NCBI GenBank assembly: GCA_946403545.1
Contig: CAMJAG010000001.1
Span: forward strand, 872-64,871
DNA from: an uncultured Bacillales bacterium
GTDB lineage: Bacteria > Bacillota_I > Bacilli_A > RFN20 > CAG-826
Reading direction: 5' to 3'
DNA: 64,000 nucleotides
Shown: positions 31,715 to 53,284 of the stretch, piece after piece
How the letters are laid out: the number at the start of each line of letters is the position of its first letter
How positions within the stretch are numbered: the stretch's first letter is position 1
Notes under the pieces: generated by a model
The model's input: only the letters and a program-made list of their open reading frames with translations
What the model was told of the DNA's origin: nothing
Databases searched by the model: none
Program-made: the position numbers and the translations under genes

Positions 31715-31790
31715 TGGTGGATCCGACGAGGATCGAACTCGCTACCTCATCGTTGCGAACGATGCGCTCTCCCAGATGAGCTACGGACCC
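31715..31790 (-). tRNA. tRNA-Ala (anticodon read as CGC), CCA encoded
   Basis: Reverse complement folds into a cloverleaf: acceptor GGGTCCG/CGGATCC with the G3:U70 alanine identity pair, D arm GCTC/GAGC, anticodon stem CATCG/CGATG with loop TTCGCAA, T arm GCGAG-TTCGATC-CTCGT, and a 3-prime CCA. Confidence 0.85.
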
Positions 31791-36645: not shown

Positions 36646-38314
36646 GAACTGCGTCCACTGCTGCTACAATTTTTGCATCATCGTAGAAGTCATCATATTC
36701 CACTTTATAATCTGGGTCTAAACCATCCTCAATCGGAAGATATAAGTTCTTTCCGTTTTCCTTTTTAACATATCTTAATGTCATAGTAGATGAGATGGTT
36801 AATGCTGTTCCGTCCGCTAAAACGGTAGGCATAACAGCGCACATTCCACCACCAGATTGTTTGCCAATAATCTTTGCAATTCCTTGCTCTTTTACAATAG
36901 AAACCGCTAAATTTGCTGCAGAGAATGTATTTTCTCCCGCTAATATTGTCCAAGTGTAATCGTTATAAGCATCACCTTCATATTTGCCATCTTCATCAGT
37001 GTCAATTAAGAATCCTGCTCTTTCATAAGTGTTATTTAAAGTATTGTAAATAGAATAGAAAACATCATCATCTGTCATAAAGCCTAAGAATCTAATTAAG
37101 GCGGCAAGATTACCACCACCATTAAGTGATAAGTCTACAACAATATCTTTAACTTCATCATGGGCTTTAATTCTAGTCATGCAATATTGCATCAATTTAT
37201 ATGTATCATATTGCCATGCTGAAGCACTATTGAGTTGATCTTTAGTGCCTGTAACAAAGCTATCAAATGTAATAATTGCAGTATCTCCAGAGAATCTTAC
37301 AGGATTTCTTTCAGGATTAATTTCTGCAATATTTCTTTTAGCAGTTAAATCATTTTTTAAATTGAAGTATGTATTCCACTTTGTTCCTCTTCTAGCTAAC
37401 GGAACGGTTGTGGAATCATCTCTATCCATATAATAAGTTCCAAAATCCACTCTTGAGTGGAGATCGTTTAATGTTTTAAATACAAAGTCAGTTATTCCTC
37501 TATAGTTATTTGCACCAACAGGAGATGTAATTAACGCTTTTGTGTTTGCGTCAATATAATCAATAGCCTTTGTATATCCTTTAATTTCTTTTAGACCATA
37601 GAAATAATCTAATAAGAATGCTAATGAACTCAAAGTAGCGTTACTAACATCTTCAGGAATCTCAGTTCCACACATAGGAGTGGTAAGTTTAATTAAAGTC
37701 GTTGCTTGAGCATCGCTTACTTCTCCAAACGCTCCATAAAGTTTATCTCCATTAAAGAAAACATTGTAATAATTTTGACTACAGAAAAGTATATTAGCGA
37801 TCACTAAAGGCAGTAAAACCTTATTATTTTCATATTTAATATCAAATCCATAATCACTTAATTTAAAGTTAAGTTGTCTAATTTGAGAAGCGTCAGATTC
37901 ATCTTTATTTTGTTTAAAATTAGCACTATAGTCAGTGGATAAAGATGTCATTGCAATTATGTTAAAGAATTGGCTATCTCCACGAATAACATCATTTTCC
38001 CAATCAATCTCAATAGCGCCATAGATTAAGAATGACATCATCATCTTCTTTTCATTAATATCTTTTTTAATACTAATATAATCAGAAATTAAATATCCTC
38101 TTAAATCTTTAACAAACTTTGCAATATCTACATAAGGAACATTACCTCCATCAGGAAAGAATAATTTCATCCTCTTTGTAGTTATTTGAAAATCAGGTGA
38201 AAGATTTTGAAAATAATATGTCTTTGCATTTTTGTCTAATAATGAACATCCAGTAGCCGCTAGACAAGACGCTACTAGAGGTAATAATGTAAATAATTTA
38301 ATTCTCTTTTTCAT
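36632..38314 (-). CDS. S41-family (C-terminal processing) peptidase lipoprotein
   Basis: Lipobox ATGCS, DLSLNGGGNLA (the S41 DLRNNxGG-type motif) and FSAANLAVS (catalytic Ser region). Confidence 0.6.
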   Translation of the reverse strand: MKKRIKLFTLLPLVASCLAATGCSLLDKNAKTYYFQNLSPDFQITTKRMKLFFPDGGNVPYVDIAKFVKDLRGYLISDYISIKKDINEKKMMMSFLIYGAIEIDWENDVIRGDSQFFNIIAMTSLSTDYSANFKQNKDESDASQIRQLNFKLSDYGFDIKYENNKVLLPLVIANILFCSQNYYNVFFNGDKLYGAFGEVSDAQATTLIKLTTPMCGTEIPEDVSNATLSSLAFLLDYFYGLKEIKGYTKAIDYIDANTKALITSPVGANNYRGITDFVFKTLNDLHSRVDFGTYYMDRDDSTTVPLARRGTKWNTYFNLKNDLTAKRNIAEINPERNPVRFSGDTAIITFDSFVTGTKDQLNSASAWQYDTYKLMQYCMTRIKAHDEVKDIVVDLSLNGGGNLAALIRFLGFMTDDDVFYSIYNTLNNTYERAGFLIDTDEDGKYEGDAYNDYTWTILAGENTFSAANLAVSIVKEQGIAKIIGKQSGGGMCAVMPTVLADGTALTISSTMTLRYVKKENGKNLYLPIEDGLDPDYKVEYDDFYDDAKIVAAVDAVHGGN

Positions 38315-38404
38315 ATTGAAATTATTATACGATATCTGTATTTATTTATAAATAAGTAAGAGGACAAATCATGTCCTCACACTACTTATTGACATATATA
38401 TAAA

Positions 38405-38930
38405 ATGAAAGAGCATTGGAACCCAGTGAAGTCATCTTGCTGATGGCTGGGGCCCAACCAAAAGAGAAGGATATTCGGGATACTGAATATCTAACAAGAC
38501 CTGTTTATCAGGTATTCCGGGATTAAAATACCGCTTTGGTTGGTGGCGCATAATGCTCTTCGATGTAAGTAGACACCCGAGTAGGCACTACAAGAGGCTC
38601 TGTAGCAATACATCCCACGATAAGATGTTAGTCTGAGAAACTAATATCTACGTTCTCAAAGAAAGTGTTTGGCTTGATGGTAAGCAATTACCTATAACTA
38701 CTTTGGTGGGCACTAGTAGGAGAATGCCAGCGAGTTTTGGATCTACGACAAGATAAAAAATATAGCTGAAGCTCTCTGAAAGTTGGAAGATGATGTAACT
38801 CTTCCCATGGTACGGTAGCAATACCCATTCCAGAAGTATTAGGGTCGCTCCCTCTTACTCAGCCTGGCGTGCATGTGTACGAAAAACAAATTAGAGTAAG
38901 TTATGTATGGCGAAGGTCATCAATGTACAA
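38405..38930 (+). ncRNA. Candidate large structured non-coding RNA (class unknown; ROOL/GOLLD-like size range)
   Basis: A ~530-nt intergenic stretch with no ORF in any frame and a GC content clearly above the ~30% background. It has many local hairpins and a long-range pairing (GAGCATT 38411-17 with AATGCTC 38557-63; CCAACCAAA with TTTGGTTGG), and ends in an intrinsic terminator. The strand is inferred from that terminator. Confidence 0.4.
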
Positions 38931-38934
38931 AAAA

Positions 38935-38966
38935 GGTGGATTCTTATGACTCCACCATTTTTATTT
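38935..38966 (+). terminator. Intrinsic terminator (first copy of a 37-nt repeat)
   Basis: GGTGGAttcttatgacTCCACC hairpin followed by ATTTTTATTT. Confidence 0.6.
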
Positions 38967-38998
38967 GTAGTATGAATGACACATGATAAAATGAATTC

Positions 38999-39829
38999 AT
39001 GAATAATGAAACAAATAAAAATGAATTAGAGAATGAGAAAGTTTATATTTTCATTTCGCATTCTCATAAAGATATAGAAAAAGTAAGAAAAATTAGAAAT
39101 TATTTAGAGAGTCTTGATTGTGAACCAATTCTTTTCTTTTTAAAAAGCAAAGATGATGAAGATGAGATAATTCAACTTATCAAAGACGAGATTGATGCTA
39201 GAGTTTGGTTTATTTATTGTAGATCTATAAATGCATCTAAATCTAAATGGGTTAATGATGAAGTAACATATGTTGAGCAAACAGGTAAAAACAACATAGT
39301 TATAGATATCGATGGATGCCTAGATGAAAATGGAGAATTAAAAAATAGCGTTAAAAATAAACTTAATGTCATTATTAACGGATTTAGAAACTTACAACAA
39401 TTGTATATTTCTTATTCACACAAAGACTCTGTTGAAGTTCTTCGTATTGTCCAGTTTTTAAAAAGATATGGTGTTGATTTGTTTTATGATGACATGACAC
39501 ATTTTGGATCAGATTGGAAACATTCTATTCATAATCAAATTGTTAAATCGCCATATTTTCTGGTTTTTTTAAGCAAACAATCCATTAATTCACATTTCAT
39601 TTATGATGAAATAAAGCTAGCACAATACTTTAATAAAGAAATAATTCCCGTAATTCTTTATAACAATATTAACGATTATTATTCAGTCATTGAATCAGAT
39701 GTTTTCCAAAAGAATTTTGCATACTTTTTAGTCTGTGAATTCGATACTTCTAGTGATGTTCAATTCAAAGTGTCCTCATTTAGACTGCTAAACACATTAT
39801 TAGAGCATTTCTTTACGGATTTTGAATAA
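38999..39829 (+). CDS. Tandem TIR-TIR domain protein
   Basis: Two TIR domains: the first carries VYIFISHSHKDIEKV, the second LYISYSHKDSVEV. 276 aa with no other domain. Confidence 0.8.
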   Translation: MNNETNKNELENEKVYIFISHSHKDIEKVRKIRNYLESLDCEPILFFLKSKDDEDEIIQLIKDEIDARVWFIYCRSINASKSKWVNDEVTYVEQTGKNNIVIDIDGCLDENGELKNSVKNKLNVIINGFRNLQQLYISYSHKDSVEVLRIVQFLKRYGVDLFYDDMTHFGSDWKHSIHNQIVKSPYFLVFLSKQSINSHFIYDEIKLAQYFNKEIIPVILYNNINDYYSVIESDVFQKNFAYFLVCEFDTSSDVQFKVSSFRLLNTLLEHFFTDFE

Positions 39830-39836
39830 AAGAAAA

Positions 39837-39868
39837 GGTGGATTCTCATGAGTCCACCATTTTTATTA
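39837..39868. terminator. Bidirectional intrinsic terminator (second copy of the 37-nt repeat)
   Basis: GGTGGATTCTCATGAGTCCACC hairpin followed by ATTTTTATTA; 35 of 37 positions match 38930-38966. Confidence 0.6.
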
Positions 39869-41101
39869 TGTTCGAGTAACTGAGAGGCTAACACTCCAAA
39901 CATAATAGAACATACTTGATGCATTCGCCGTAGGATGGTTTAGATTTAGCATAGCTTCTTCTATAAATAATGCATCTGATTTAGGTACTTTAATTGAGAA
40001 ACTATCCAAATCCGCACCATTGTTACTTTCTAAATGTATCGGGGTTTTATATTGGTTATTGAGTATAAACGACCCATTGATCCAATTACATAACAGCAAT
40101 AATTTTCTACCATAGTTATAGATATTAATCGTATATGTAATGTATTCAGTTGAAGATTCTGCGATCCATTCTTTTAAGTTAAATGGAAGTTTGTACTTCA
40201 ATGATGCATTTGAGGAATAAGTGCTATTTATGGTTGCACTGTTATCTTCAAATGTACTTGTTACACGTAGGCCTGCATAACTCTTATTAAGATTTATATA
40301 TTTATATTCTTCTAATAATGCTTCAGTTCCTAAATAAAGTTTCATTGAAATAGGACTTATTTTTGCAGGTGCAGTTGAGATACAACCTTTTGGTCTAGAA
40401 ACAGTGAATTTAATTCCTTTTAATATCTCTTCTTTATCTAATTTGTACATTCTATTGAAGACTGTGTAGTCATCATTTGAACGGAAGGTTCCACTATCAA
40501 TTAAAGATATTGCAGTATCTAACCTATAATCAACCCAATTAAATGTGTTAATTCCTACTACACCTTCTTCTTTTTCATAGTGGCTGAATTTTATAGTCAA
40601 ATAACCAACTGATTCAGTGTGTTGGAGATAGTATTGATAGTCTTCACTAAGCTTTAATTCATATGATTTTGACTTATTAGAACAAGAGATGTCTACACTA
40701 GGAAAATTGAAGTCTATAATCTGAGCTTCATTAGTGTCCAAATAGTTTGCGTAAATGTTTTCTGGAAGTTCCACATTGTCATAAATTGCTTTGCCAGAGC
40801 GATCCACTAATTTCTTTGAATTTAAGTTTGGCTTTTCGAAACAACCCATAAAGAGTTTGTCCTTCTTCTCTGTAGGTTGATATTCGAAAGTATTTATGTA
40901 TTGTATGGTATTTACTTCACCATCGTTTGCAATAACATTAACTTCCTTCCATGGAATTGGTTGTGGCTTATAATCCTCATCTAAAATCGGACAATTTGTT
41001 TCCCCTTTCATAGAAAAGGAACATGCACTGATAGATAATAACGAGACTGCTGTTATGAGTATTAAGCTAATTTTTCTTTTCATAATTGAGATCCTCCTCA
41101 A
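39866..41101 (-). CDS. Lipoprotein of unknown function
   Basis: Lipobox LLSISACS; 411 aa, beta-rich and Tyr/Asn-rich. Confidence 0.5.
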   Translation of the reverse strand: MRRISIMKRKISLILITAVSLLSISACSFSMKGETNCPILDEDYKPQPIPWKEVNVIANDGEVNTIQYINTFEYQPTEKKDKLFMGCFEKPNLNSKKLVDRSGKAIYDNVELPENIYANYLDTNEAQIIDFNFPSVDISCSNKSKSYELKLSEDYQYYLQHTESVGYLTIKFSHYEKEEGVVGINTFNWVDYRLDTAISLIDSGTFRSNDDYTVFNRMYKLDKEEILKGIKFTVSRPKGCISTAPAKISPISMKLYLGTEALLEEYKYINLNKSYAGLRVTSTFEDNSATINSTYSSNASLKYKLPFNLKEWIAESSTEYITYTINIYNYGRKLLLLCNWINGSFILNNQYKTPIHLESNNGADLDSFSIKVPKSDALFIEEAMLNLNHPTANASSMFYYVWSVSLSVTRT

Positions 41102-41124
41102 TTACAAAATATCACGAAAATAGG

Positions 41125-41433
41125 TTAAATACAATATCTATAGAATAAAAAGAAAGACACCCCGTCAAGGATGTCTATTGCGGATACCTCGAAGATATCA
41201 GCGAAAGTATTGACTGTATCAAGATTCACTGTTCCTTCGTTTTCAATTCTGCGTAAGTTTCTTACTGAATATCCAACGCGGTCTGCTAGCTCTTCTTGAG
41301 TCCAGTTTCTACTTTTTCTTAGGTTCTTGATGGATGTACCAATCAAGCGTGAATCAATTAATGTTCTCATAACTACTACCTCCCAAATTGATCTGCTACC
41401 TATATTGACAGGTTTTCCTGAGTTTTGATTCAC
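41125..41433 (-). CDS. XRE-family (Cro/C1-type HTH) transcriptional regulator
   Basis: HTH_3 region IKNLRKSRNWTQEELADRVGYSVRNLRRIENEG. The true start may be the internal Met at about 41370. Confidence 0.7.
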   Translation of the reverse strand: MNQNSGKPVNIGSRSIWEVVVMRTLIDSRLIGTSIKNLRKSRNWTQEELADRVGYSVRNLRRIENEGTVNLDTVNTFADIFEVSAIDILDGVSFFLFYRYCI

Positions 41434-41486
41434 TAAGTAGTTTATGAGCGTATATACTTTAAATTATCCTACGATTGTTGTCAACA

Positions 41487-41738
41487 CTAATTGTCAGAAA
41501 TTGATTCTGCAAGTTCTAATATTTGTACAAATGTTAAAGATTGAAGGTGTAGATACGCTTGAACAACAGCCAACTTATATTCAGTTCTATCTGTTGACCT
41601 AATAGCAATATCTCTAAACCTTCTAAATTCTACTCTTGTTTCTTGCTCTGTATCACTAAGGCATGTCATTACCATTTTATTAGTTGCTTCTAAAGTAAGT
41701 TGCCTCAAATATTTTTTCTTAGCCTCAACATCAACCAT
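41487..41738 (-). CDS. Small hypothetical protein between the TIR-MTase and XRE genes
   Basis: 83 aa, charged and alpha-helical, 8 nt downstream of the TIR-MTase gene. Confidence 0.35.
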   Translation of the reverse strand: MVDVEAKKKYLRQLTLEATNKMVMTCLSDTEQETRVEFRRFRDIAIRSTDRTEYKLAVVQAYLHLQSLTFVQILELAESISDN

Positions 41739-41746
41739 ATAAATAC

Positions 41747-43099
41747 CTATTTCTTAAATCCTACACAAACAAAGCGGTTAACTGCGTACCAAAAATCATT
41801 TCTAGAGAAACGATATTGGAGTTGCGTTAACAAATCTTCCATTTCATTGAACTCTGCTTTAGTTTGCTCATTTTCGTTTGCGATTAATTGAGCTTTAAAA
41901 TAATTCAATCTATAAGCAAAGCTTACTTTATAAAGACCTAATTTCTCTTCATAAGACATATGAGATGTTTCTGTAACAGTGCAATGCATTTTAACTTTGT
42001 TAAATCCTTCATGGACTAACCAAGAATAAAGTTTTCTACCATTGTTTCTATCAGACATTCCTTCAAGAGAATAAGATTTCTTTAAGACTTTTTCTATAAG
42101 CTCATCATCTCCATAAGAAATCTTACTGCCATCATCACTACCTCTAACAATAATCATTCCGCCTTTATTCATAAGAGCCTTTAAATTCTCTAATGCTTTT
42201 TCAGGATTTGTTAGATGATGGAGGACTAAGAAACAAGAAACAACATCAAAGCCTTTAATGCCCTTTTGCTTCATTATTCCCTGCATTTCCTCCATAAATG
42301 TTGGACTTTCAATATTTAATTGATAGAAAGAGAACTTACTATTTTTATTATTTTTATTTGCTTGTTCAATAGCACTTTCACTAATATCGATTCCCACTAC
42401 TTTAGTGTATTTTGCTTTTCTAAAAGCTTGTCTAGTTACATATCCTTGAGCGCAACCAACATCTAGAACTGTGTAATTGTTTTTGTCTAAATACATGTCT
42501 AAAATGCGTTGGTTTTCATCATCATATCTAGATCCTTGGCTTTTTAATCTTTCTGATTCATTAGTGAAATCAAATTCATAAATAGACCATCTTCCTTTGT
42601 AATCAATGCAATCTTTTGGTCTTGGTCTAGAAACTAAAAACCTATTAAACAATCTCTTTTGATAATCATTTACATCAAAAACATCACCAATTGGTTCACT
42701 ATGACAATCTCTAATTGCGTCAATTTCCTTTGGTAACTTTTTTGGATAATTAACTTTATCTAAGAATAAAACTAGAATATTTAATCCTTCAGTTTTTAAA
42801 GCGGTTTCTATTTCTTGTCTAACCCAGTCATCTTTTTTAAATATTCTCTTAGAAAATGTATCTGGAGTTACAAGAAGAATAAAGTCTTTGGAATTATGGA
42901 TTGCATTAGTTAACTGAGGTGGAAACATACCACCTTGAATTGATACCTTATCAAAGAAACTTAGATAACCATTATCCATCAAATTTCTATATAAAAGATA
43001 CGTTGGATATAATCCATCACTTCTTCTATATGAAATGAAAACATCATATATAAAATCTTTTCTCTTAATTTGAGTGTTTTTATTAATTTCTTCAGGCAT
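41747..43099 (-). CDS. TIR domain fused to a class I SAM-dependent methyltransferase
   Basis: N-terminal TIR (FIYDVFISYRRSDG ... ILLVTPD) and a C-terminal Rossmann MTase (motif I VLDVGCAQGYVT, motif IV-like DVVSCFLVLHHL). Confidence 0.8.
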   Translation of the reverse strand: MPEEINKNTQIKRKDFIYDVFISYRRSDGLYPTYLLYRNLMDNGYLSFFDKVSIQGGMFPPQLTNAIHNSKDFILLVTPDTFSKRIFKKDDWVRQEIETALKTEGLNILVLFLDKVNYPKKLPKEIDAIRDCHSEPIGDVFDVNDYQKRLFNRFLVSRPRPKDCIDYKGRWSIYEFDFTNESERLKSQGSRYDDENQRILDMYLDKNNYTVLDVGCAQGYVTRQAFRKAKYTKVVGIDISESAIEQANKNNKNSKFSFYQLNIESPTFMEEMQGIMKQKGIKGFDVVSCFLVLHHLTNPEKALENLKALMNKGGMIIVRGSDDGSKISYGDDELIEKVLKKSYSLEGMSDRNNGRKLYSWLVHEGFNKVKMHCTVTETSHMSYEEKLGLYKVSFAYRLNYFKAQLIANENEQTKAEFNEMEDLLTQLQYRFSRNDFWYAVNRFVCVGFKK

Positions 43100-43198
43100 A
43101 TTCAGTCCTCTTATTTATTAATTTTATAATAAAATAAAGAAAAATACTTTAATATGATAATATAAGAGTGAAGTATATTTACGTGAGGTATTAAACAT

Positions 43199-45580
43199 AT
43201 GTATCCTGAATTACTTGCTATTTTCATTATTACTGGAGTTGTTGAACTCGTTTTAATAGGTGTATTTTTTTATAACCTAATCAGATATAGATATCTTGGT
43301 AATAAATATTTTTACGTAACTGTAAGTGTATTAGTTCTTTTGATGTATTCAACATTCGTCAATAGATCATCAGATCTTTCTATTTCTATGTTTGGAAACA
43401 TAGTGTTTGACACTATTGCGGCAGCAGTAGGTAAAGTTGATACTGAAAAGATTTCTTGGCTGTTTTTACCGGGCGAATGGAATAAATGGCTAGTAATTTT
43501 CTACTTTATCGCCTCATATACAACATTCGCATTCTTATCCATCACAGTTATTCTTAACTTTGCAAAACTCTTCTTAAATGCATTTATTTTCTATAAAAGA
43601 CGAATTATAAATGGAGCAAATGTGTACTATTTGTTCACAGATTCTAGAAATGAAACAGTAATTCCTTTAGCCACTAAACTATTAGATGAAACAAAAGGTC
43701 GTAAAAACTCAGTTAAAGTTTTCGTTTCTAGAGCATCTTTAAAAACTCAAGAAGGTAATGAATTTAGAGATATGTTAGTGGGCTTAGGCATTCCTGTTCA
43801 AGCTGAAAAATTCTCATACAGGATGGCTAGAAAGATCTTTAATTCTAGATACTTCAAACTACATCTTTTTGATAAGCAACAATCGTTTATTTACTTACTT
43901 TTCTCAAATGACGAAACCACTACAAAAGTGGCAACTGATTTCAAAACAGCGATTCAAAAGAATCGTAAGTTTAAAAAAATTAACGACTTTGTAACTCTTT
44001 TAAAGGAAACAAAAGACAAAGATAAATTAGAGAAATTAAAAGAGAACTTTAATGAGAAAGAATATGATTTATTACAAAAAATCCAAATCTTTGTCACTTA
44101 TCAAGAAACAGATTTAGATATTCTCCATAACTTCTCTGGAGAGACATTGCATATCATGAATACTCTTTCTAAGTACGACATGATTGCTTCTAGATTTGTA
44201 TTTGATAATCCAATCTCTCAATTAGTGGACTTAAACAACATCAAACTTAAAGAAGACAATAAACATTTAAATGTTACACTCCTTGGTTTTGGTGTTATTG
44301 ATAGAGCAATATTTGAAAGAATGACATTCTCTTATCAACTTTATGGAGATAATATTAACAAAGTTAATTACCATGTTTTAGATAGAGATGCTGATTCTTT
44401 AATTAAACCTTATGTAAACGAATATACAGATAGAAATAACAGTGTTTATCTATACTCTATCGACTCCGCTTTCGATGGAGAAGATTTAAGACACTACGAA
44501 ACAATTGATAGATATATCTCATCATTGCAAAACGATCCAAACCGTTTCCAAGATGATGGTTTTGAAATCTTTGTTATTTCAGTCATAAACTCAAATAACG
44601 ATTTAAATATCGCGCTTAACTTAAGAAGAGCTATCTTAAAATACTTCAATGATAGATGTGAACAAGTTGTTATTTACGTCAGAGTTGCAGAAAGACTCAT
44701 TGGAGAACAATTCAGAGGTTCAAATCTTTCATACACATACGAAACTCTCTCTCATATTCACGAAGTAAAAGACTTCAATAAGAAATCTGATGTAGAGAAA
44801 GAAGCATACTTCAACTCATTCAAGGACGAGGAAGAAAGAAAAGCAGCAGAGAAAAGATTAATTAAAGATTTAAAAGCACCTATCATTCTCTTTGGTAATG
44901 ATGCAATTATGTCCACATATCTTGCTAGAGAACATAAATACTTCATGGGATTCGCTGAAAACGCTTGGAAATCCTACCAATTAGAACAAGCTTATAACAA
45001 TTATTCTGAAACTCAACTTGATAGATTATGGTTAAGACAAAATAAACAAGAAGTTAAAAATAACACTGATTATGTTCTTTCACTTAGAACAAAGCTAAAC
45101 TTATTTGGCTACAAACTAAATCTAAATAAACAAGAAAACCAATACTTAATGGTTCCTGGTGATGATGTTTCAATTCTTACTTCAGGTGAAAATGAAGAAA
45201 CATTCCTTGAAAGAACAAAACTTAAAGATGAAACTGGTGATGTTGCAAAAGTTCTTAAGATTGCTGATATGGAACATAACCGCTGGTTACAATCCAATAA
45301 CCAAAGATTTAGATATTTATCTAAAGATTACACAAAGGTCGAGGATCAAGAACTATTTGGAGTGAATAAATACACCAATGAAAAAGAAATCACAAGGAAA
45401 TATAACGACAATACACAACACATTTGTATGGTCACTAATGAGGGATTAAGAGACTTCTACAATTATGTTGGAAAGAAAAATCCTGAATATAAAGATGTCG
45501 CTTTAAAACTTGTGTACACAAACGATATTGTTCAGTTAAGAACGATAATCAAAAATGGAACAGAACAAAAGAATAAATAA
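43199..45580 (+). CDS. Membrane protein with four N-terminal TM helices and a ~650-aa cytoplasmic domain of unknown function
   Basis: 793 aa with a hydrophobic N-terminus and no recognisable motif in the soluble part. It is followed by a terminator. Confidence 0.55.
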   Translation: MYPELLAIFIITGVVELVLIGVFFYNLIRYRYLGNKYFYVTVSVLVLLMYSTFVNRSSDLSISMFGNIVFDTIAAAVGKVDTEKISWLFLPGEWNKWLVIFYFIASYTTFAFLSITVILNFAKLFLNAFIFYKRRIINGANVYYLFTDSRNETVIPLATKLLDETKGRKNSVKVFVSRASLKTQEGNEFRDMLVGLGIPVQAEKFSYRMARKIFNSRYFKLHLFDKQQSFIYLLFSNDETTTKVATDFKTAIQKNRKFKKINDFVTLLKETKDKDKLEKLKENFNEKEYDLLQKIQIFVTYQETDLDILHNFSGETLHIMNTLSKYDMIASRFVFDNPISQLVDLNNIKLKEDNKHLNVTLLGFGVIDRAIFERMTFSYQLYGDNINKVNYHVLDRDADSLIKPYVNEYTDRNNSVYLYSIDSAFDGEDLRHYETIDRYISSLQNDPNRFQDDGFEIFVISVINSNNDLNIALNLRRAILKYFNDRCEQVVIYVRVAERLIGEQFRGSNLSYTYETLSHIHEVKDFNKKSDVEKEAYFNSFKDEEERKAAEKRLIKDLKAPIILFGNDAIMSTYLAREHKYFMGFAENAWKSYQLEQAYNNYSETQLDRLWLRQNKQEVKNNTDYVLSLRTKLNLFGYKLNLNKQENQYLMVPGDDVSILTSGENEETFLERTKLKDETGDVAKVLKIADMEHNRWLQSNNQRFRYLSKDYTKVEDQELFGVNKYTNEKEITRKYNDNTQHICMVTNEGLRDFYNYVGKKNPEYKDVALKLVYTNDIVQLRTIIKNGTEQKNK

Positions 45581-45586
45581 CCTATG

Positions 45587-45615
45587 AAAAGCCATAGAAC
45601 TGGCTTTTCTTTTTA
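45587..45615 (+). terminator. Intrinsic terminator after the 793-aa membrane protein gene
   Basis: AAAAGCCAtagaacTGGCTTTT followed by CTTTTTAC. Confidence 0.55.
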
Positions 45616-45632
45616 CTTTACACTACAAATAC

Positions 45633-45645
45633 ACGCATAATGCGT
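45633..45645. promoter_or_regulatory. Perfect 13-nt palindrome ACGCATAATGCGT upstream of the ATPase-ClpP operon (candidate operator)
   Basis: An inverted repeat 50 nt upstream of the 45695 start, followed by a second palindrome, TTTGTAgaaaTACAAA. Confidence 0.3.
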
Positions 45646-45694
45646 TATATAATGGATTTGTAGAAATACAAATATAGCAATGGAGAATTAGATT

Positions 45695-46618
45695 ATGATT
45701 ACAGAAATTCATAAGAATTATTCTGCTTTTCGAGAAATGTTGTTAGCCACAACTGCTTTAAGCAACCGTTCTAGTAAGAAATATGATGACGATTGCAAAG
45801 CAATCATTGATTTCATCGGAGAAGCATATGGTCTAGAAAAAGACCTCGTAGAATATTGTAAAAAGGTCATTTTAGATGAACTAGTTACAATATCTACTGA
45901 CCAAGATATCCGCGCTTTCGTAAATTCACATACCGCTGACAGTGAATTAGAAGAATTAGACTCTTTATTAAGCGCTAAATGTGATGTTATTGGAGTTATT
46001 AGAAACTTTGGAGAAGTTAGAAGTCCTCAATTAAGTGAGACTTGGTTTGACTATAGTCATAGCAATCCATATTATCCAGAAATTAGATATCAACAATTAT
46101 CTATCGCTGCTTCCACAGGTAATGTAGTAGCAAATAAGATCGTTGGTATTCTTTCTGTTTTAGGTATTGGATGCGAAGCTACTAGAGAAAAGGTTCTTTC
46201 TGGAGTTTATAGACTTAGACAATGCGCTATTTGGGGAGACATTTCTTCTCTAATTATGATTAGACAAGTTTATAGAATCTTAGAAATGAAAGAACAAGTA
46301 AAACTCTATGATGAATTAGTGTCATTAGTACCTTTCATGAAAGAAGGAAGAACAGTAATTCCTCAAAGAATTGCAGAGAAAATCTCTAGAGAAGCAATAG
46401 AAACATTCGCAATTATCTGTTCTATTAAACAAGACATTATCTTAAATCAACATAAGTTCTACATAGATTATTCATTCGTTGAAGTTATGTTACTTAAAGA
46501 AGTTGATTACTATGATAAACTCCACTTCATTAATAAATATGACGCTCAAGAGTGGAAAGAAGTTACTAACTCATCATTTAATCCAAATAAGAAGATTGGA
46601 TTTAAGATTGGAGAATAG
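45695..46618 (+). CDS. Hypothetical protein, first gene of the ATPase-ClpR/ClpP operon
   Basis: 307 aa, alpha-helical, with no recognisable domain. The C-terminus ends in ...KKIGFKIGE (an IGF tripeptide). It sits 3 nt upstream of the ATPase gene. Confidence 0.5.
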   Translation: MITEIHKNYSAFREMLLATTALSNRSSKKYDDDCKAIIDFIGEAYGLEKDLVEYCKKVILDELVTISTDQDIRAFVNSHTADSELEELDSLLSAKCDVIGVIRNFGEVRSPQLSETWFDYSHSNPYYPEIRYQQLSIAASTGNVVANKIVGILSVLGIGCEATREKVLSGVYRLRQCAIWGDISSLIMIRQVYRILEMKEQVKLYDELVSLVPFMKEGRTVIPQRIAEKISREAIETFAIICSIKQDIILNQHKFYIDYSFVEVMLLKEVDYYDKLHFINKYDAQEWKEVTNSSFNPNKKIGFKIGE

Positions 46619-46621
46619 ATT

Positions 46622-48586
46622 ATGAAAAGAAGACCATATTCTGAACAAGTATCTCAAAAATACATTGATCAAAATCTTGAAAACACTCAAATAATGTCCT
46701 TCCTTGAATATAAAGGTAAAGGCTACGCTAAATACTTATTTGATGATTTAGCAAAAACTGATATCAAAGGATTCCCATTCTCTAGTGATTTTGTATCTTC
46801 TAAAGGGAAATCATATTCCTTTATTGATTTTGAAAATCTAAGTGATAAAGAAAAAGCGGATTGTAAACTTAGATTCTTCTATTTACCTAATTATCATGAG
46901 TTATATATCGGTACTACTGGTTCTGGTAAAACTACAGGATGTATTGAACCACAAATCAGAGCGATATCCACTCAAAAGAATAAAGCTAACTTATTTATTA
47001 CTGACCCTAAAGGTGAGTTATTTGAACATAATGGTAAATACTTAAAAGACCAAGGTTATAACGTATTTGTTCTTAACTTTAGAAACTTAGGTAGAACTCA
47101 TACATGGAATCCACTTAAAGAAATGTATGAAAAACAAATGGAATCTCTCACTATTGGAAAGAATAGTAAGAAATGTAATTGTCCAGTAGATAAGTCACTA
47201 GCGTTAATGTCTGAAAAGAGTAAATATCAAGGCACATATATTGCTTATAAACACATGGCATTTGCAACACAAGAAGACTTTGATAAATACGTGAATATTG
47301 AAACTTATTTAAATAAATCCAAAGTTTCTTCATTAGTTAACCAATTATGTGACTGTATCTTTAGTGAAGATAAATCCACTACAGATAGAACTTGGAGTGA
47401 TGGTGCTAGAGGATTATTCCATGGTATTTTATTGTCCATGTTAGAAGAAGCTGTTTTACCAGGAAGTAAGTTTAGCGAACAACATATGACATTAAAGACA
47501 GTTAACGATATCTTCAATTTAATTAGAGAAGGTAGCGAAACTCGCGATTCATATGGAGATCACTACACTAACGAAGAAATGCATGAGAAGATGGTAGACT
47601 TCTTGCATGGTAAATCATCTATTTGTATGAGCAAGTTAAATAATATTATTAAGACTGCTCAAACAACGAGAAAAGGGTTTTTATCAACATTCTTATCCAC
47701 TACTGAAAAATGGATGCAAGGTCACATCTATCAATTGACAAGTCATACATCTATTTCTCTAGAAGATAATGAACATCCTTGGGCGGTATTTGTATCCACT
47801 AGAGACTATGATAAATCAGATAATGTTATCGCTGGTTTATTCATTGACTGGGTATATAGACAATCTCTACAAGCTGTTGAAGAGAAACGTAAACTCGGTT
47901 TAGAACCTAGACCAATTCACTTCTTATTAGATGAATTCGCTAACATTCCAAGAATCCCTGACTTTGATAATAAGATTGCTACTGCTAGAAGTAGAAATAT
48001 GTGGTTCCACTTATTCGTTCAATCTTATGATCAATTAGATTTAATCTATGGAGAAGAAACAGCCTCTATTATCGTAGATAACTGTAACCAACAAACATTC
48101 TTAGGTTCTCAATCTCAAGAAACTAAAGAAAGATTCTCTAGAGAATGTGGTAAAAAGACTGTTACATCCTTAGAAGGTGTTATTCATGGTGAAGTTAACG
48201 ATGTTGTAGAAATCCCAGTTGTGCCTATCACAAGTCTAGATCAAATCAAACCTGGTGAAATGTACACTAAACGTATTTATTCTCCAATATTAAGATGTAG
48301 CTTTATCAGAAGCTATCAATGCGCTCAACAAGGTATCTTTAAAAACTTCTGGAATAATAAAGCGGAAGAAGAACTTATTCCACTTAACTATGTTATTCCT
48401 GATGATTTAGAACATTCTTATTTACCAGTATTAAGCGCTATTGAAGTAAGAAGATTATGTCCACCTAGACCAAGAAATCCTCGTAGTAGAGTTCAATACG
48501 AAGATGAAGACATGGAAGCAGAAGATCCTGAAGACTTTGAAGACTTCTTACATGAAGTTCAACTTAAGATGAAAGGAAAGAAGTAG
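46622..48586 (+). CDS. Soluble VirD4/TraG/TraD-type (type IV coupling protein-like, FtsK-HerA superfamily) P-loop ATPase
   Basis: Walker A IGTTGSGKTT, the T4CP DPKGE motif (ITDPKGELF), Walker B HFLLDEFANIP, and QSYDQLDLIYGEE. There is no N-terminal TM anchor, and the C-terminal tail is acidic. Confidence 0.8.
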   Translation: MKRRPYSEQVSQKYIDQNLENTQIMSFLEYKGKGYAKYLFDDLAKTDIKGFPFSSDFVSSKGKSYSFIDFENLSDKEKADCKLRFFYLPNYHELYIGTTGSGKTTGCIEPQIRAISTQKNKANLFITDPKGELFEHNGKYLKDQGYNVFVLNFRNLGRTHTWNPLKEMYEKQMESLTIGKNSKKCNCPVDKSLALMSEKSKYQGTYIAYKHMAFATQEDFDKYVNIETYLNKSKVSSLVNQLCDCIFSEDKSTTDRTWSDGARGLFHGILLSMLEEAVLPGSKFSEQHMTLKTVNDIFNLIREGSETRDSYGDHYTNEEMHEKMVDFLHGKSSICMSKLNNIIKTAQTTRKGFLSTFLSTTEKWMQGHIYQLTSHTSISLEDNEHPWAVFVSTRDYDKSDNVIAGLFIDWVYRQSLQAVEEKRKLGLEPRPIHFLLDEFANIPRIPDFDNKIATARSRNMWFHLFVQSYDQLDLIYGEETASIIVDNCNQQTFLGSQSQETKERFSRECGKKTVTSLEGVIHGEVNDVVEIPVVPITSLDQIKPGEMYTKRIYSPILRCSFIRSYQCAQQGIFKNFWNNKAEEELIPLNYVIPDDLEHSYLPVLSAIEVRRLCPPRPRNPRSRVQYEDEDMEAEDPEDFEDFLHEVQLKMKGKK

Positions 48587-48587
48587 T

Positions 48588-49133
48588 ATGGCTAACGATA
48601 ATTTTGAAGAATTATATAAACAAGGAATTATAGTCATCACTACTGGTATAGAAGATATGGATGTTACTAGTAACATCATCTTATCTCTTCTTAATTGGAA
48701 CAGAATTGATCCAAAGAAAGAATTACAACTCTATATCTCTTCAGTATCTGGAGACTACCTAAATGTCCTTTCTATTTATGACGCTATCCAATCAATTAGT
48801 AATCCAATTTCAGGATATTGTATTGGTTTAGTTGGTAGTTGCGCTGCACTACTTTTAGCGGCGTGTAACAAAGGTAAACGCTACATTTTAGAGCATAGTC
48901 AAATTGCTTTAAGAGAGATTTCTGGCATTATTCCTGGTGGAAGTAAACAACAAACAGAAATCGAAATTCTCGCAAACGAATTAGCGTCTCAAAGAGAAAC
49001 ATTTGAATCTCTTCTTTCAAAACATACAGGTCAATCCGTTGAAGAAATACACCACCTTTGCTATGAAAACACTTATTTAACTCCTGAAGAAGCTATTAAA
49101 AAAGGCTTCGTAGATAAGATTGTGAGGAAATAA
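48588..49133 (+). CDS. ClpP-fold protein lacking the catalytic His and Asp (ClpR-like inactive paralog), N-terminally short
   Basis: It aligns to ClpP (YISSVSGDYLNVLSIYDAIQSI...GLVGSCAAL). The Ser position is kept, but His (IHQP becomes LREI) and Asp (ERD becomes YEN) are replaced. It lacks the N-terminal axial-loop segment. Confidence 0.7.
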   Translation: MANDNFEELYKQGIIVITTGIEDMDVTSNIILSLLNWNRIDPKKELQLYISSVSGDYLNVLSIYDAIQSISNPISGYCIGLVGSCAALLLAACNKGKRYILEHSQIALREISGIIPGGSKQQTEIEILANELASQRETFESLLSKHTGQSVEEIHHLCYENTYLTPEEAIKKGFVDKIVRK

Positions 49134-49135
49134 TT

Positions 49136-49648
49136 ATGGATAACAGAATTATTACTTTAAATGGTGAAATCAACGAAGGAAGCGCGATGAAAGTTATTCT
49201 TTCATTACTTCAAATGGATGCTGAAAATAGAAAACAACCAATATATCTATATATCAACTCTCCTGGTGGAAATATTGTTCATGGATTAGCAATATATGAT
49301 GTTATGAATAACATATCCGCTCCGGTATATACAGTATGTAATGGCATGGCAGCATCGATGGGTAGTTTCTTACTCTCTTGTGGTGCTAAAGGACATAGAT
49401 ATTGTTTAAAACACTCTCGTATTCTTATCCATCAACCACTTGTCTATAACAACTATGGAAGAATGATTGAAGAAAGCGAAGCTCAACAAATCGCCGCTAA
49501 TTTAAGAAAAGATAGAGATAAATTAGAACAAATCATGGCAGACAATTCTGGTAAAGACATTAAAGTCTTCCATAAGGATTGTGAAAGAGACCATTGGATG
49601 AGCGCTCAAGAAGCTCTAGACTATGGTCTAATAGATAAGATTATCTAA
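49136..49648 (+). CDS. clpP: ClpP-family serine peptidase with an intact Ser-His-Asp triad but missing the N-terminal axial loops
   Basis: GMAASMGS (Ser), ILIHQP (His) and CERDHWMSAQEALDYGLIDKI (Asp) are present. It is 170 aa, against ~195-200 for canonical ClpP. Confidence 0.8.
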   Translation: MDNRIITLNGEINEGSAMKVILSLLQMDAENRKQPIYLYINSPGGNIVHGLAIYDVMNNISAPVYTVCNGMAASMGSFLLSCGAKGHRYCLKHSRILIHQPLVYNNYGRMIEESEAQQIAANLRKDRDKLEQIMADNSGKDIKVFHKDCERDHWMSAQEALDYGLIDKII

Positions 49649-49655
49649 GAAAAGA

Positions 49656-49680
49656 GGAAGTCCTAGACTTCCTTTTATTT
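49656..49680. terminator. Bidirectional terminator between the two convergent operons
   Basis: GGAAGTCctaGACTTCC stem followed by TTTTATTT; the IMPase stop codon lies within the T-run. Confidence 0.55.
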
Positions 49681-50433
49681 CACTCTATTAAGTATTAACT
49701 CAAGTGTTTCTTGGTTATTTGCAACCACTAATGAATCGCTACCAAATTCGTATTCTTTTTTATTGATGGTTTTATAAACCATTCCAGCTTCTTTTATCAA
49801 TAAAAGACCTGGTGCTATATCCCATATGTAATTGTAGTAGCAGATATATGCTTGTGCTTTTGATGTGGCTAATGTAGTAAAGTCTACACAAGCCGCTCCT
49901 AAAAGTCTCGTTTTAAGGAAATTCCCTTGTAAATCCTTCATTAATTCAAATTGTTTATCAAATGAAATGGTTTTGTTATCTTTATAAAAATCACTAGATA
50001 ATAAAACTCCATCTTCATGTTTAATATCTTTATTTACTTTAATAGGTTTTCCATTAAGGAAAGCTCCACCATCTTTCTTAGCAAGATATAACTCATCCTT
50101 ATATGGCAAATAGATTATTGATAACACTACTTCTTTCCTTTGGAAAACCGCTAGTTGAATACCACAAAGTTCTATGCCCATTGAATAGTTACAAGTGCCA
50201 TCAAGTGGATCGATAACAAAGGTTAGTTCATCTGTTAGTGGTTCGTTTTTACTTTCTTCTGCGATTATTTTTGCTTGAGGGAATTCTTTTTTAATAGCGT
50301 TAACAAAATAATCATTAAGTTCTAAATCCGCTTCTGAGAGTAAGTCATTAATAGATTTATGTTTAATTGATTTATGTTGCTTAAAGAATATGTCTTTTGA
50401 AGATAAAACTAGTTGTTTTAAATACTCTTCCAT
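49675..50433 (-). CDS. Inositol monophosphatase / CysQ-family phosphatase
   Basis: EES metal site, DPLDGT and WDIAPG motifs; 252 aa. It sits 4 nt downstream of the TIR-NACHT gene. Confidence 0.8.
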   Translation of the reverse strand: MEEYLKQLVLSSKDIFFKQHKSIKHKSINDLLSEADLELNDYFVNAIKKEFPQAKIIAEESKNEPLTDELTFVIDPLDGTCNYSMGIELCGIQLAVFQRKEVVLSIIYLPYKDELYLAKKDGGAFLNGKPIKVNKDIKHEDGVLLSSDFYKDNKTISFDKQFELMKDLQGNFLKTRLLGAACVDFTTLATSKAQAYICYYNYIWDIAPGLLLIKEAGMVYKTINKKEYEFGSDSLVVANNQETLELILNRVK

Positions 50434-50437
50434 GCGA

Positions 50438-53284
50438 TTATCCCTTCAAATCTCTAATAAATTTCTCAACATGTTTAATCCATGTTAATACTGATTCATT
50501 TTGTAAGTATTCGTATTTTCTTGTTACTTTTTGTGCTTCGCAAATCAAATTATATAAAGCTTGTGCTTCAGTTAATTCGATTGGAATATTTAGTTTTTCC
50601 GCAATTTCAATTGCTTCAGAACAAGGAGCTTCCGCTTTTGCAAGTAAGGAAGTATCTCCATTATAGTTTACTAAATAGTAAAGAGAAGTTAAGAAATAGA
50701 TTTGACCTTGGTCATATAAATCTTTATTCTCTTTAGCACATTTCATTGCTTCTTCTTTTAATTCCATGATCCTTGCTTCATTGCCACGATTAACAATTTC
50801 ATAGAACATAGATGTATATAAGAATCTTGTGTAATATCTATCATGTTGGTTATATAAGACATAGATTGCTTCCGCTTTATTAAGTTTATCTTTAGCTTTA
50901 GCTAAATCCATATGCCATATACATGCATCAGCGTATACACGATAGTCTTCCGCTAAGAAGAGGTGATCTCCAATTTGAGTGCCATCTTCCATTTCTTCTT
51001 TAACTCTTTTATCAAGAAGCGCGACAGCATTATCTGCTGCTTTATAGCAGTTTTCTAAATCAAGCCTTCTACAATAAACTTTTGATAAAGTTAAGTTAAT
51101 CAAAGATTCTTCGTATAAATCGCCTGCTTCTTTAGCGTCTTTGATCGCACCATCACTCATTCCTATGAGTTCGTCGAATAGCACCATCTTGCGATAAACA
51201 AGCATTGCCATTCTTTCAAATTCACTACGAATTTCTATGTCTAATTCGCCTAAATCATGTTCTTTGATGAATTCTTTAATGTCATTAAATGCTTCAGTAA
51301 ATGATAAGGAAATATAGTGGAATTGAATAACTCCCATATCATAGTTCACATCATCACTTGGATCTCTATTCTTTAAGAACTTACCAAATCCTGCTTCTTT
51401 AAGTTTGATAAATAAGCCAGCGTTATAGATTGCTTGTCTATATTTGATAAAGATTTTTGTAAAACATTCAGACTGATAGATTTCAAACGCTTCATAATCA
51501 TCATCCTTATAGATGTAATTGATGTTATCAATGTATTCAAATAATCCTTCATAAAGAGTGTAAAGTTTTGATTTAATACACACTCTTAAAAAGTCAAAAT
51601 TCTTTAATAGTTTACAAAGTTTTTCTGTCTTTTTAAGTGCTTTTAAGGCTTTTTGATAGTCTAAGATGACATAAGGATTGTTCTTCCATTCACCTAATTC
51701 AATTTGCTTTTCAATATATTCAAGCAAGATCTTATAACCATCTCTTCTAGAGACACAATATTTTGCAGGACATTCGTTAGATTCACTTAACCAGTCTAAA
51801 ATTGATTTATGTCTACTCTTAAGAGTGCCATCTTCAATAATTACAAAGTAATTAGATACTATATCGATATTCTTTCTAATTTCAGATTCTGATAGACCTG
51901 TTGCATCCGCTAAAAACTCCACTGTTGGAGGAACGCTTGTAGCGAGTAATAAAGATATAATCTTTCTAATATCTTCATAATCATCTGGTGCTTTAGGGAA
52001 AATTCTATCAAACCAGATTAAGTAGTATGAATAAATTCCGTCAGGGAATTCTCTAACGTTATCTAAAGAGTATTCACCACTCTTAATTAGACTAACAATA
52101 CTCTTAGCATATAAGAATGATCCATGTGTTTTTCCAAGCAAAATCCTCAGTGTTTCTGCATCGAATTTATAATTTGAGAGTGCTTGGTCATAATACTTTT
52201 TAATATCCGCAACGTTTTCTTCATTGTTTTCTAACATGCTGAAAACGTGACAACTTGAGAAGTAACTAACAACATTCTTTTGAGGTCTAGTTGAACATAA
52301 AATCTTTAACCAAGAAGGTAAAGTGTTTTGATAAGTCACTATCATCTCAGCAATTTCATTTTTATTATCCAAAACTGCTTCATCTAATGCATCGATAACA
52401 ATTATTTGAGGGTTCTTAAAAGTAACTTTGTTACCTACTTCAATAAAGAACAACTCAAATAATCTTTTAGCGTCTAAATTATCTATATTTGCTTCTCTAG
52501 TTAAAATCTTTTTAATTTCGAGATTATAATCTTCGTTACGACCAGCGATTTGTGCTGCTAAGTTTTTAATAATACTTCTAGCGTCAGTCTTAGTTCTATT
52601 ACCAAAGCTACAGAAATGGATACCTGCAACATTGTTATGGAAATTAATAGTTAACATAGCGCACATTGCAGTCTTTCCAATACCTGGAGCAGCTTGTAAT
52701 AAATAGATTGGTAAACTATCTGGTTTATTAATCCATTTTTCTACATCCGCGAAGAAAGAATCTCTACCAACAAAGTTGAGTGTATGATGAGTAATTTCAA
52801 AAGCGTCAATAGCTTGGACTTCTTTAGAAATATCAAAACCAGTATCGAAGTAGCCTACTTCTTCTTCGTTTCTAACGATCTTTAGTAATCTTTGATAGCA
52901 ACTTTCGTATACATCTTCAATGATTGAATTATCCGCTGCGACAGCGTTTTTAATCATGATTCTTTGTAAACGAACAATTGAAAGAGGAACATAAGAGTCA
53001 TCTAACATGATAGGAACAATTGTTTTCTTATATTCCACTGCTCTAGCGAGTTCATTTAAACAATATCCGTCTAGAGAAACAGACTTTTTAGATACAAAGA
53101 AAACAAAATGACTACATCTTTGAATCGCGTTATCAATTTTAGTTTCCCAATCACCTTGATATAGATAGTCCTTATCAAGGAAGACTTCATAAACTTCTTC
53201 TTTGCGTAAATCAGTAACAACTTTATTGACTACGTTTTCTAAAGTTTGATGTCCATAGGATATGAAAATAACTTGTTTATCCAT
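50438..53284 (-). CDS. TIR-NACHT-TPR protein (bacterial STAND/NLR-like NTPase with a TIR effector domain)
   Basis: N-terminal TIR (VIFISYGHQ...FVFFVSKKS), a NACHT Walker A LLQAAPGIGKTAMCA and Walker B IIVIDALDEAV, and C-terminal TPR-like helical repeats; 948 aa. Confidence 0.85.
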   Translation of the reverse strand: MDKQVIFISYGHQTLENVVNKVVTDLRKEEVYEVFLDKDYLYQGDWETKIDNAIQRCSHFVFFVSKKSVSLDGYCLNELARAVEYKKTIVPIMLDDSYVPLSIVRLQRIMIKNAVAADNSIIEDVYESCYQRLLKIVRNEEEVGYFDTGFDISKEVQAIDAFEITHHTLNFVGRDSFFADVEKWINKPDSLPIYLLQAAPGIGKTAMCAMLTINFHNNVAGIHFCSFGNRTKTDARSIIKNLAAQIAGRNEDYNLEIKKILTREANIDNLDAKRLFELFFIEVGNKVTFKNPQIIVIDALDEAVLDNKNEIAEMIVTYQNTLPSWLKILCSTRPQKNVVSYFSSCHVFSMLENNEENVADIKKYYDQALSNYKFDAETLRILLGKTHGSFLYAKSIVSLIKSGEYSLDNVREFPDGIYSYYLIWFDRIFPKAPDDYEDIRKIISLLLATSVPPTVEFLADATGLSESEIRKNIDIVSNYFVIIEDGTLKSRHKSILDWLSESNECPAKYCVSRRDGYKILLEYIEKQIELGEWKNNPYVILDYQKALKALKKTEKLCKLLKNFDFLRVCIKSKLYTLYEGLFEYIDNINYIYKDDDYEAFEIYQSECFTKIFIKYRQAIYNAGLFIKLKEAGFGKFLKNRDPSDDVNYDMGVIQFHYISLSFTEAFNDIKEFIKEHDLGELDIEIRSEFERMAMLVYRKMVLFDELIGMSDGAIKDAKEAGDLYEESLINLTLSKVYCRRLDLENCYKAADNAVALLDKRVKEEMEDGTQIGDHLFLAEDYRVYADACIWHMDLAKAKDKLNKAEAIYVLYNQHDRYYTRFLYTSMFYEIVNRGNEARIMELKEEAMKCAKENKDLYDQGQIYFLTSLYYLVNYNGDTSLLAKAEAPCSEAIEIAEKLNIPIELTEAQALYNLICEAQKVTRKYEYLQNESVLTWIKHVEKFIRDLKG

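Follow-up and report, generated by a model that had tools for sequence, protein, structure and literature searches.

A ROOL RNA upstream of a tandem-TIR gene in the chromosome of an uncultured Bacillales bacterium

On contig CAMJAG010000001.1 of an uncultured Bacillales bacterium (GenBank assembly GCA_946403545.1), a stretch of about 530 nt without evident open reading frames (ORFs) lies directly upstream of a gene for a protein with two TIR domains, which raises the question whether the stretch encodes a structured RNA in its own right, the RNA component of an RNA-plus-effector module, a leader of the downstream gene, or no RNA at all. The analysis covered 64,000 nt of the contig (positions 872 to 64,871, forward strand; hereafter the window, to whose numbering the coordinates below refer unless a different locus is named). 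A preliminary description of the stretch (38405-38930) had likened it to the giant RNA classes ROOL and GOLLD, and had considered both an RNA-guided or RNA-sensing TIR module and an independent ornate RNA. We conclude with high confidence that positions 38413-38926 (+) encode a ROOL RNA of approximately 515 nt, i.e. a structured non-coding RNA that is probably transcribed independently, and that the adjacent TIR gene belongs to a separate cassette.

The whole window was scanned against Rfam 15, and the region 38200-39100 was rescanned with permissive filters on both strands (E<=1). The scan of the window yielded two matches only, a gene for a transfer RNA (tRNA-Ala, 31715-31790) and a ROOL RNA (RF03087) at 38398-38938 (+); the latter match was not truncated, covered model positions 1-574 of 574, and scored 187.6 bits compared to a gathering score of 99.1 bits (E 1e-40). 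The ROOL core extends from the 5' strand of P1 (GCATTGG, 38413-38419, +) to its 3' strand (TCAATGT, 38920-38926), and the P1-to-P1 distance of 514 nt lies within the length range of about 500-660 nt of ROOL RNAs. GOLLD, HEARO, OLE and raiA, for which a search had also been proposed, gave no match on either strand in the rescanned region and are excluded, since ROOL was the sole family at E<=1. Hence, the preliminary description was right as regards ROOL, and the independent ornate RNA was the correct one of its alternatives, because the ROOL match is of full length and none of the other families listed was found. The element is a further member of an already catalogued family, and not a new RNA class.

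Relatives of the element were collected by sequence motifs. A first motif, AACCCNGTGAAG...GCNGGG, was too unspecific (a ROOL-like locus in one of 120 viral matches) and was replaced by a 29-nt motif of the 3' hairpin. This motif retrieved 39 loci from viruses and 15 from genomes, the two from Granulicella and Neisseria among the latter being chance matches; a clade-specific 20-mer yielded nine metagenome loci. Fourteen of the retrieved loci are 70-98% identical to the window element, and all of these score above the Rfam threshold (158-223 bits). Their sources are metagenome contigs and metagenome-assembled genomes with the labels Erysipelotrichaceae, Anaeroplasmatales, Mollicutes, Bacilli and Bacillales, and the habitats sampled include the rumen and the human gut; with the window element they are referred to below as the clade. 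A blastn search of the element against phage and plasmid collections gave no match. Separately, two tandem ROOL genes (263 and 230 bits) were observed at positions 2969-4077 of locus L162, from an uncultured Bacilli genome of a Hadza gut sample.

The conserved blocks of the ROOL family are retained in the alignment: AACCCAGUGAAG...GCUGGG, the GGGAUAC loop, ACAAGAGGC, UAUAAC and CUGAAAGUU, as well as GGGUCGCUCCC...CUCAG and GGCGAAGG, where GGGUCGCUCCC and GGCGAAGG are hairpins. The sole long unconserved stretch of the clade alignment is a large loop with a variable linker (38725-38771, +; variable core approximately 38729-38764), whose counterpart in the Rfam ROOL model is the long A-rich loop that is unpaired. 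In the window sequence, 107 of the 143 model pairs mapped are canonical. The Rfam structure was also mapped on an alignment of seven clade sequences, with the 3' partners slid by 1-3 columns as one control and 500 shuffles as another. The proportion of paired cells was 75.9% compared to 37-42% in the slid controls, and 36 pairs were changed on both sides compared to 6-16; none of the 500 shuffles reached the observed values. Covariation among homologs, proposed earlier as a check, was thus observed in these seven sequences. The loops relevant to pseudoknots and kissing contacts are invariant within the clade and therefore yield no covariation signal. Overall, the element shares with ROOL the full-length model match, the multi-junction architecture, the conserved blocks and the variable internal linker, and is of similar size and from similar hosts (Bacillota/Mollicutes-like; rumen and gut).

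Conservation in the clade starts about 55 nt before P1, at an inverted repeat, GAGGACA-N5-TGTCCTC (38360-38378, +), which is a candidate regulator-binding site. The 3' half of this repeat, GTCCTCAC (38373-38380), overlaps the -35 position; it is invariant in all 12 clade loci with upstream sequence and always located 20 nt before the -10 box, in flanks that are otherwise unrelated. The putative -10 box, TAAAAT (38401-38406, +), corresponds to a conserved TAnnnT hexamer, whose distance to the first base of P1 is 6 nt in all of the 12 clade loci except L161, where it is 9 nt. The predicted ROOL promoter would consist of a good -10 box without a canonical -35 box, with the inverted repeat in the -35 position; transcription would start at approximately 38412-38413, about 44 nt downstream of the centre of the repeat. 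Since no canonical -35 box is present, the repeat looks like an operator or activator site. The hexamer TTGACA at 38389-38394 was considered as a -35 box and rejected, because it lies just 6 nt from the conserved -10 box; the sequence TATTGACA (38387-38394), in the spacer between repeat and -10 box, is conserved in about half of the loci. The repeat folds as a 7-bp hairpin (-10.6 kcal/mol) that is not followed by a T-run on the + strand, and the T-run on the - strand is not conserved.

At its 3' end, the ROOL gene is followed by a hairpin terminator (38931-38965, +) composed of GGTGGA-N10-TCCACC (38935-38956) and then ATTTTTATTT, with a folding energy of -13 kcal/mol (z -3.6). The preliminary description had correctly ended the element in an intrinsic terminator, although the terminator lies just past the end that it had set. 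An automatic promoter and terminator scan detected neither the ROOL promoter nor this terminator, the latter because the 10-nt loop exceeds 8 nt. In distant relatives a T-run directly follows the 3' strand of P1; the window and the near-identical loci L181 and L183 diverge from the other relatives after P1 and carry this hairpin terminator of their own.

Several points weigh against the assignment as made above. The model helices 10, 11 and 25 are mostly unpaired in the clade and the hairpin P3b is shortened, and for this reason cage formation and stoichiometry cannot be assumed to be as in the solved members of the family. The scores of the clade (184-223 bits in this comparison) are below those of the phage and tRNA-array ROOLs (225-370 bits), and the usual ROOL context, a tRNA array or a prophage, is lacking in the window, where the copy is chromosomal, beside a variable island, and the nearest tRNA gene (the tRNA-Ala gene mentioned above) is 6.6 kb off. 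Furthermore, the expression, the 5' and 3' ends and the abundance of the RNA at this locus are all inferred, and transcription may read through the terminator into the TIR-TIR gene. The lack of a prophage or tRNA array still allows membership, because ROOL has also been found outside prophages (Weinberg et al. 2017, PMC5737381). Given the lower scores, and given that the canonical ROOLs with higher scores, from phage contigs and other genomes, lie within tRNA arrays, we regard the window clade as a somewhat divergent, tRNA-free branch of ROOL, whose membership in the family is not in doubt.

Beyond the TIR-TIR gene lies a convergent two-gene unit (39866-41433, -), which comprises a gene for an XRE-type helix-turn-helix (HTH) protein (41125-41433; HTH_3 Pfam match) and, after a gap of 23 bp, a lipoprotein gene (39866-41101). 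The lipoprotein (411 amino acids) carries a signal peptide (signal MKRKISLILITAVSLLSISAC) and the lipobox LSISAC; searches of Pfam, PADLOC and NCBIfam assigned it to no family, and none of the PDB sequences was significantly related to it. A homologue of the HTH gene stands beside ROOL, in convergent orientation, in nine of the 12 clade loci with at least 400 bp of downstream sequence; the loci listed with an HTH neighbour are the window (41125-41433, -), L161, L166, L169, L170, L175, L176, L180, L181 and L182. ROOL and the HTH gene are 13 bp (L182) to 2.2 kb apart, and the slot between them contains nothing, a small basic ORF, a membrane protein of 211-217 amino acids, a DinJ-Fic pair (L180), or the lipoprotein with or without the TIR-TIR gene (window and L181). 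An HTH gene is also found close to the ROOL (130 bits) of the Lactobacillus salivarius megaplasmid pMP118, the ROOL that was the first to be studied by experiment; here the co-directional gene LSL_1884 (L191, 47914-48186) begins 78 nt downstream and was suggested by the discoverers of this RNA to influence the expression of the long non-coding RNA (PMC5643018). LSL_1884 is weakly similar to the window HTH protein (26% identity, E 4e-4), with a common C-terminal DIL..DG..FLF tail. A tblastn search of plasmids with the window HTH protein had returned generic HTH matches only, none of them on a plasmid of L. salivarius, and the comparison with pMP118 therefore rests on direct inspection of that locus.

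The small XRE-type HTH gene may be a recurrent regulator of ROOL. In an extended form, the clade ROOL and the HTH gene would be a regulated pair, the HTH protein binding the promoter repeat, and the gap between them would be a landing site for toxin and defence genes that ties ROOL to conflicts with phages and mobile elements; this is possible, but we consider it rather unlikely. The fixed distance of GGACA-N5-TGTCCTCAC from the -10 box in all 12 loci is as expected for a regulator-binding site of this kind, but no second copy of the repeat beyond chance was found near the promoter of the HTH gene or elsewhere in the window. The recurrence of the HTH neighbour in nine of 12 loci is set against the fact that HTH_3 genes are very common as chance neighbours, and L160, L177 and L178 have no downstream HTH gene, although L177 retains the repeat. 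The pMP118 locus, with its HTH gene at 78 nt and the role proposed by its authors, provides a parallel; its gene order is co-directional, however, whereas the orientation is convergent in the clade, and the inverted repeat is absent upstream of the L. salivarius ROOL. The variable content of the slot (13 bp in L182, the DinJ-Fic pair in L180, the lipoprotein with or without TIR-TIR) would fit repeated landing of cargo, but the lipoprotein and the small basic ORFs are not defence genes. The more specific claim, that the clade ROOL is a regulated gene requiring a factor at GGACA-N5-TGTCCTCAC, with the XRE-type HTH protein as the candidate, and that the ROOL-HTH slot repeatedly gains toxin or defence cargo, appears doubtful and has a low probability in our judgement.

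Two observations were made on the contents of this slot. In L180 (451-1761), the ROOL-adjacent HTH gene heads an operon with genes for a DinJ/RelB-like antitoxin and a Fic-domain protein (motif HPFREGNTRT); this toxin-antitoxin pair fills the slot that holds the lipoprotein and TIR-TIR genes in the window. In several clade members, a small basic ORF of 56-73 amino acids, with the start MKxTKSK(A/S)AYTNKWLxRN, lies on the same strand directly downstream of ROOL (L177, 2551-2772, -; L165, 6824-6988; L176, 199-408; L161, 6370-6516); the window lacks this ORF, and the copies in L166 and L175 look degraded. Its product could be an RNA-binding partner, or the ORF a mere passenger gene.

The tandem-TIR gene directly downstream of ROOL (38999-39829, +; 276 amino acids) lies in a strain-specific cassette (38966-39832, +) and is a neighbour of the ROOL gene, not part of it. 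Its product matches Pfam TIR_2 twice and ThsB_TIR once, with ThsB-like matches also in PADLOC. ROOL and this gene could be imagined as one unit, with the RNA acting, in the manner of a retron, as guide, sensor or regulator for a TIR NADase effector, and several features of the window agree with such a unit: the RNA and the gene are adjacent and on the same strand, with 72 nt from the RNA to the start codon; the gene has two TIR domains with ThsB-like matches; two further TIR genes are located in the wider island; and the arrangement is retained in the near-identical contig L183 (97.7% identical over 38220-41024, with the TIR-TIR gene kept). We nevertheless regard a common RNA-TIR unit as very unlikely, for the reasons set out in the following.

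The RNA and the gene are separated by the strong hairpin terminator, and this terminator is the left copy of a 35-nt direct repeat, whose two copies (38931-38965 and 39833-39867; 94% identical) bracket the cassette of 902 bp and are the sole copies in 64 kb. The right copy (39833-39867, +; -17.2 kcal/mol, z -5.1) terminates both the TIR-TIR gene and the convergent lipoprotein gene. In the rumen contig L181, the sequence corresponding to 38059-38965 (92% identity) is followed directly by that corresponding to 39833-41738 (96% identity), so that the order is ROOL, a single terminator and the convergent lipoprotein gene, i.e. an empty site without the TIR-TIR gene. The cassette may have been gained by insertion at the terminator, or lost when the two repeats recombined; under either history, the RNA is kept in a strain that has no TIR-TIR gene.

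Co-occurrence of the two was also not observed elsewhere. No TIR gene was found in the 13 other ROOL loci of the clade, and tblastn with ten TIR queries against 532 kb of sequence from the 64 loci that ROOL motifs had retrieved detected no TIR except in the near-identical L183. Conversely, 86 homologues of the TIR-TIR protein were found at E<=1e-10 (a look-up of the exact protein gave no match), and at seven places that encode four of the homologues there is no Rfam family within 5 kb, hence no ROOL; the neighbours at these places are genes for an AAA_15/AAA_21 ATPase, Fic, AbiEii, a type-IV coupling protein plus ClpP, or a serine recombinase. The locus does resemble retrons and other ncRNA-plus-effector defence systems in that a putative defence effector is encoded immediately behind a structured non-coding RNA (ncRNA) and in the same direction. 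It differs from these systems by the terminator between RNA and gene and by the lack of a reverse transcriptase: no such domain was found in the ORFs of at least 90 amino acids between 30.6 and 54 kb, in agreement with the preliminary description, which had noted this lack. Furthermore, a near-identical strain lacks the effector gene, and the two are not found together at other loci. Similarly, the 276-amino-acid protein resembles ThsB of the Thoeris system, whose TIR profiles it matches in both halves, but no ThsA-type effector (SIR2, Macro or SLOG) was found among its neighbours, and this likeness concerns the TIR-TIR gene and not the RNA. The RNA-guided or RNA-sensing TIR module suggested earlier is not supported, in view of the intervening terminator, the empty site in L181 and the lack of co-occurrence elsewhere; the TIR-TIR gene is a separate, strain-variable cassette with no demonstrable functional tie to ROOL.

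A cis-acting leader, i.e. a riboswitch or attenuator for the downstream gene, would likewise be positioned upstream of a same-strand gene and could end in a terminator-like hairpin as the element does, but this explanation is highly improbable. The downstream gene differs in almost every relative (small basic ORF, membrane protein of 211-217 amino acids, convergent HTH gene at 13 bp, lipoprotein, TIR-TIR), the 515 nt with closed long-range helices are far beyond known leaders, and the ROOL family is known as a stable free-standing RNA.

The sequence composition of the element is as the preliminary description had it in most respects. The GC content of 38405-38930 is 0.426 compared to a mean of 0.328 (standard deviation 0.031) for 526-nt stretches of the window, and is the highest of 1270 such stretches. 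All six frames contain stops (5-15 per frame); the longest open run is 68 codons, and the ORF list contains nothing above 57 amino acids over the element. The hairpin halves that had been quoted were all found, off by one or two bases at most: GATATTC (38470) with GAATATC (38485), GGTATT (38511) with AATACC (38527), GGAAGA (38785) with TCTTCC (38800), AGGG (38841) with CCCT (38850), and GAGAA (38635) with TTCTC (38653). The long-range complementarity is present as well, at coordinates that differ by 2-5 nt from those given earlier: GAGCATT (38411) can pair with AATGCTC (38552), and CCAACCAAA (38454) with TTTGGTTGG (38535); only the second of these pairings matches a helix of the Rfam ROOL structure. 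A 10-mer, GTAGCAATAC, indeed occurs twice, at 38602 and at 38815 (rather than 38816); each copy is a short stem with a GCAA tetraloop cap, and the pair is not a repeat in the usual sense.

The fold energy of the whole element is -152 kcal/mol, with z = -2.1 relative to shuffles; stem richness alone is unconvincing because this z value is modest, and the evidence for structure rests on the covariance-model match and on covariation, not on fold energy. The remnant of a protein gene, or a spacer that is GC-rich by chance and has no RNA function, for which only the modest fold energy could be adduced, is practically negligible as an explanation, given the full-length covariance-model match 88 bits over the threshold, the compensatory changes in 36 pairs, the 70-80% identity of the element between genomes with unrelated flanks, and the stops in all six frames.

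The window is chromosomal. Genes for phosphoglucomutase, a sugar ABC transporter, cardiolipin synthase, flotillin and a GGDEF protein are located on the left, and genes for cysteine synthase, Rrf2 and an M13 peptidase on the right. A variable island extends over approximately 38.9-54 kb (genes 38999-53966) and contains neither phage genes nor a tRNA array. The TIR genes of the island are the tandem-TIR gene (38999-39829), a TIR domain fused to an S-adenosylmethionine-dependent methyltransferase (41747-43099) and a TIR-NACHT/STAND gene (50438-53284); other genes encode an orphan type-IV secretion coupling protein (46622-48586), two adjacent ClpP proteins (48588-49648) and a metallo-beta-lactamase-fold protein (53277-53966) with a sub-threshold match to the anti-Pycsar protein Apyc1. 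In two other loci (L185, 448-6251; L186, 1500-5491), the gene of a TIR-TIR homologue (50% identical) precedes, by a few genes, that of a type-IV coupling protein, with ClpP encoded next. The same pairing of coupling protein and ClpP is found in the window (45695-49648), 7 kb from its TIR-TIR gene, and its presence near TIR-TIR in both cases suggests a common origin of these arrangements in a single type of integrative or conjugative element.

Published work on ROOL dates back to 2017 (Weinberg et al., PMC5737381) and includes the long non-coding RNA of L. salivarius described by Cousin et al. (PMC5643018); the latter is non-essential, highly stable and similar in abundance to 16S ribosomal RNA (PMC5643018). 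Cryo-electron microscopy of the env-120 ROOL revealed an octameric cage with a disordered linker facing the cage interior (PMC12286853), and hexameric and octameric forms were reported for the ROOL cages of L. salivarius and Enterococcus faecalis (PMC12990946); the cages are hollow and assembled without protein, homo-octamers being found for env-120 and E. faecalis and homo-hexamers for L. salivarius (PMC12286853, PMC12990946). As a working idea, the authors of the structures proposed that ROOL encloses or sequesters other macromolecules. GOLLD (RF01998) is, like ROOL, a large and ornate RNA that forms cages; its hosts are similar, and it is often phage-borne, but it differs from the window element in that its sequence and fold are unrelated, and its model gave no match in the region.

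The window RNA might work as follows. Transcription would start from the TAAAAT promoter near 38412-38413, which has no canonical -35 box, and a regulator, possibly the neighbouring XRE-type HTH protein, may bind the inverted repeat in its place. As in other members, the RNA would accumulate to very high and stable levels and fold to a flat monomer, and six or eight such monomers would self-assemble without protein into a hollow cage, joined by kissing loops and A-minor contacts, with the variable linker (38725-38771) presumably inside. Judged from the family, the most likely role of the window ROOL would be to enclose or sequester another macromolecule.

As a discovery, the element matters little, since ROOL has been catalogued for years, is represented in Rfam, and is known from several cryo-electron microscopy structures. 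For the locus itself, the tempting hypothesis of an RNA-guided TIR defence module is removed; adjacency in a single genome can mislead, and one strain with an empty site settles the question. Only the repeat at the promoter and the HTH gene that recurs beside ROOL enlarge the picture of the family, and both are offered as leads, not as findings. If the clade ROOL were indeed regulated at this repeat and its slot a recipient of toxin and defence cargo, this would hint at a part of the RNA cage in conflicts of the cell with phages and mobile elements, and the small locus, without tRNA genes or prophage, would be a tractable entry point to the function of ROOL. The clade, which is chromosomal, compact and free of the usual tRNA-array and prophage clutter, is of modest value for work on ROOL function, and the sharply defined promoter region, with its conserved inverted repeat, together with the recurrent small HTH neighbour makes the regulation of ROOL directly testable.

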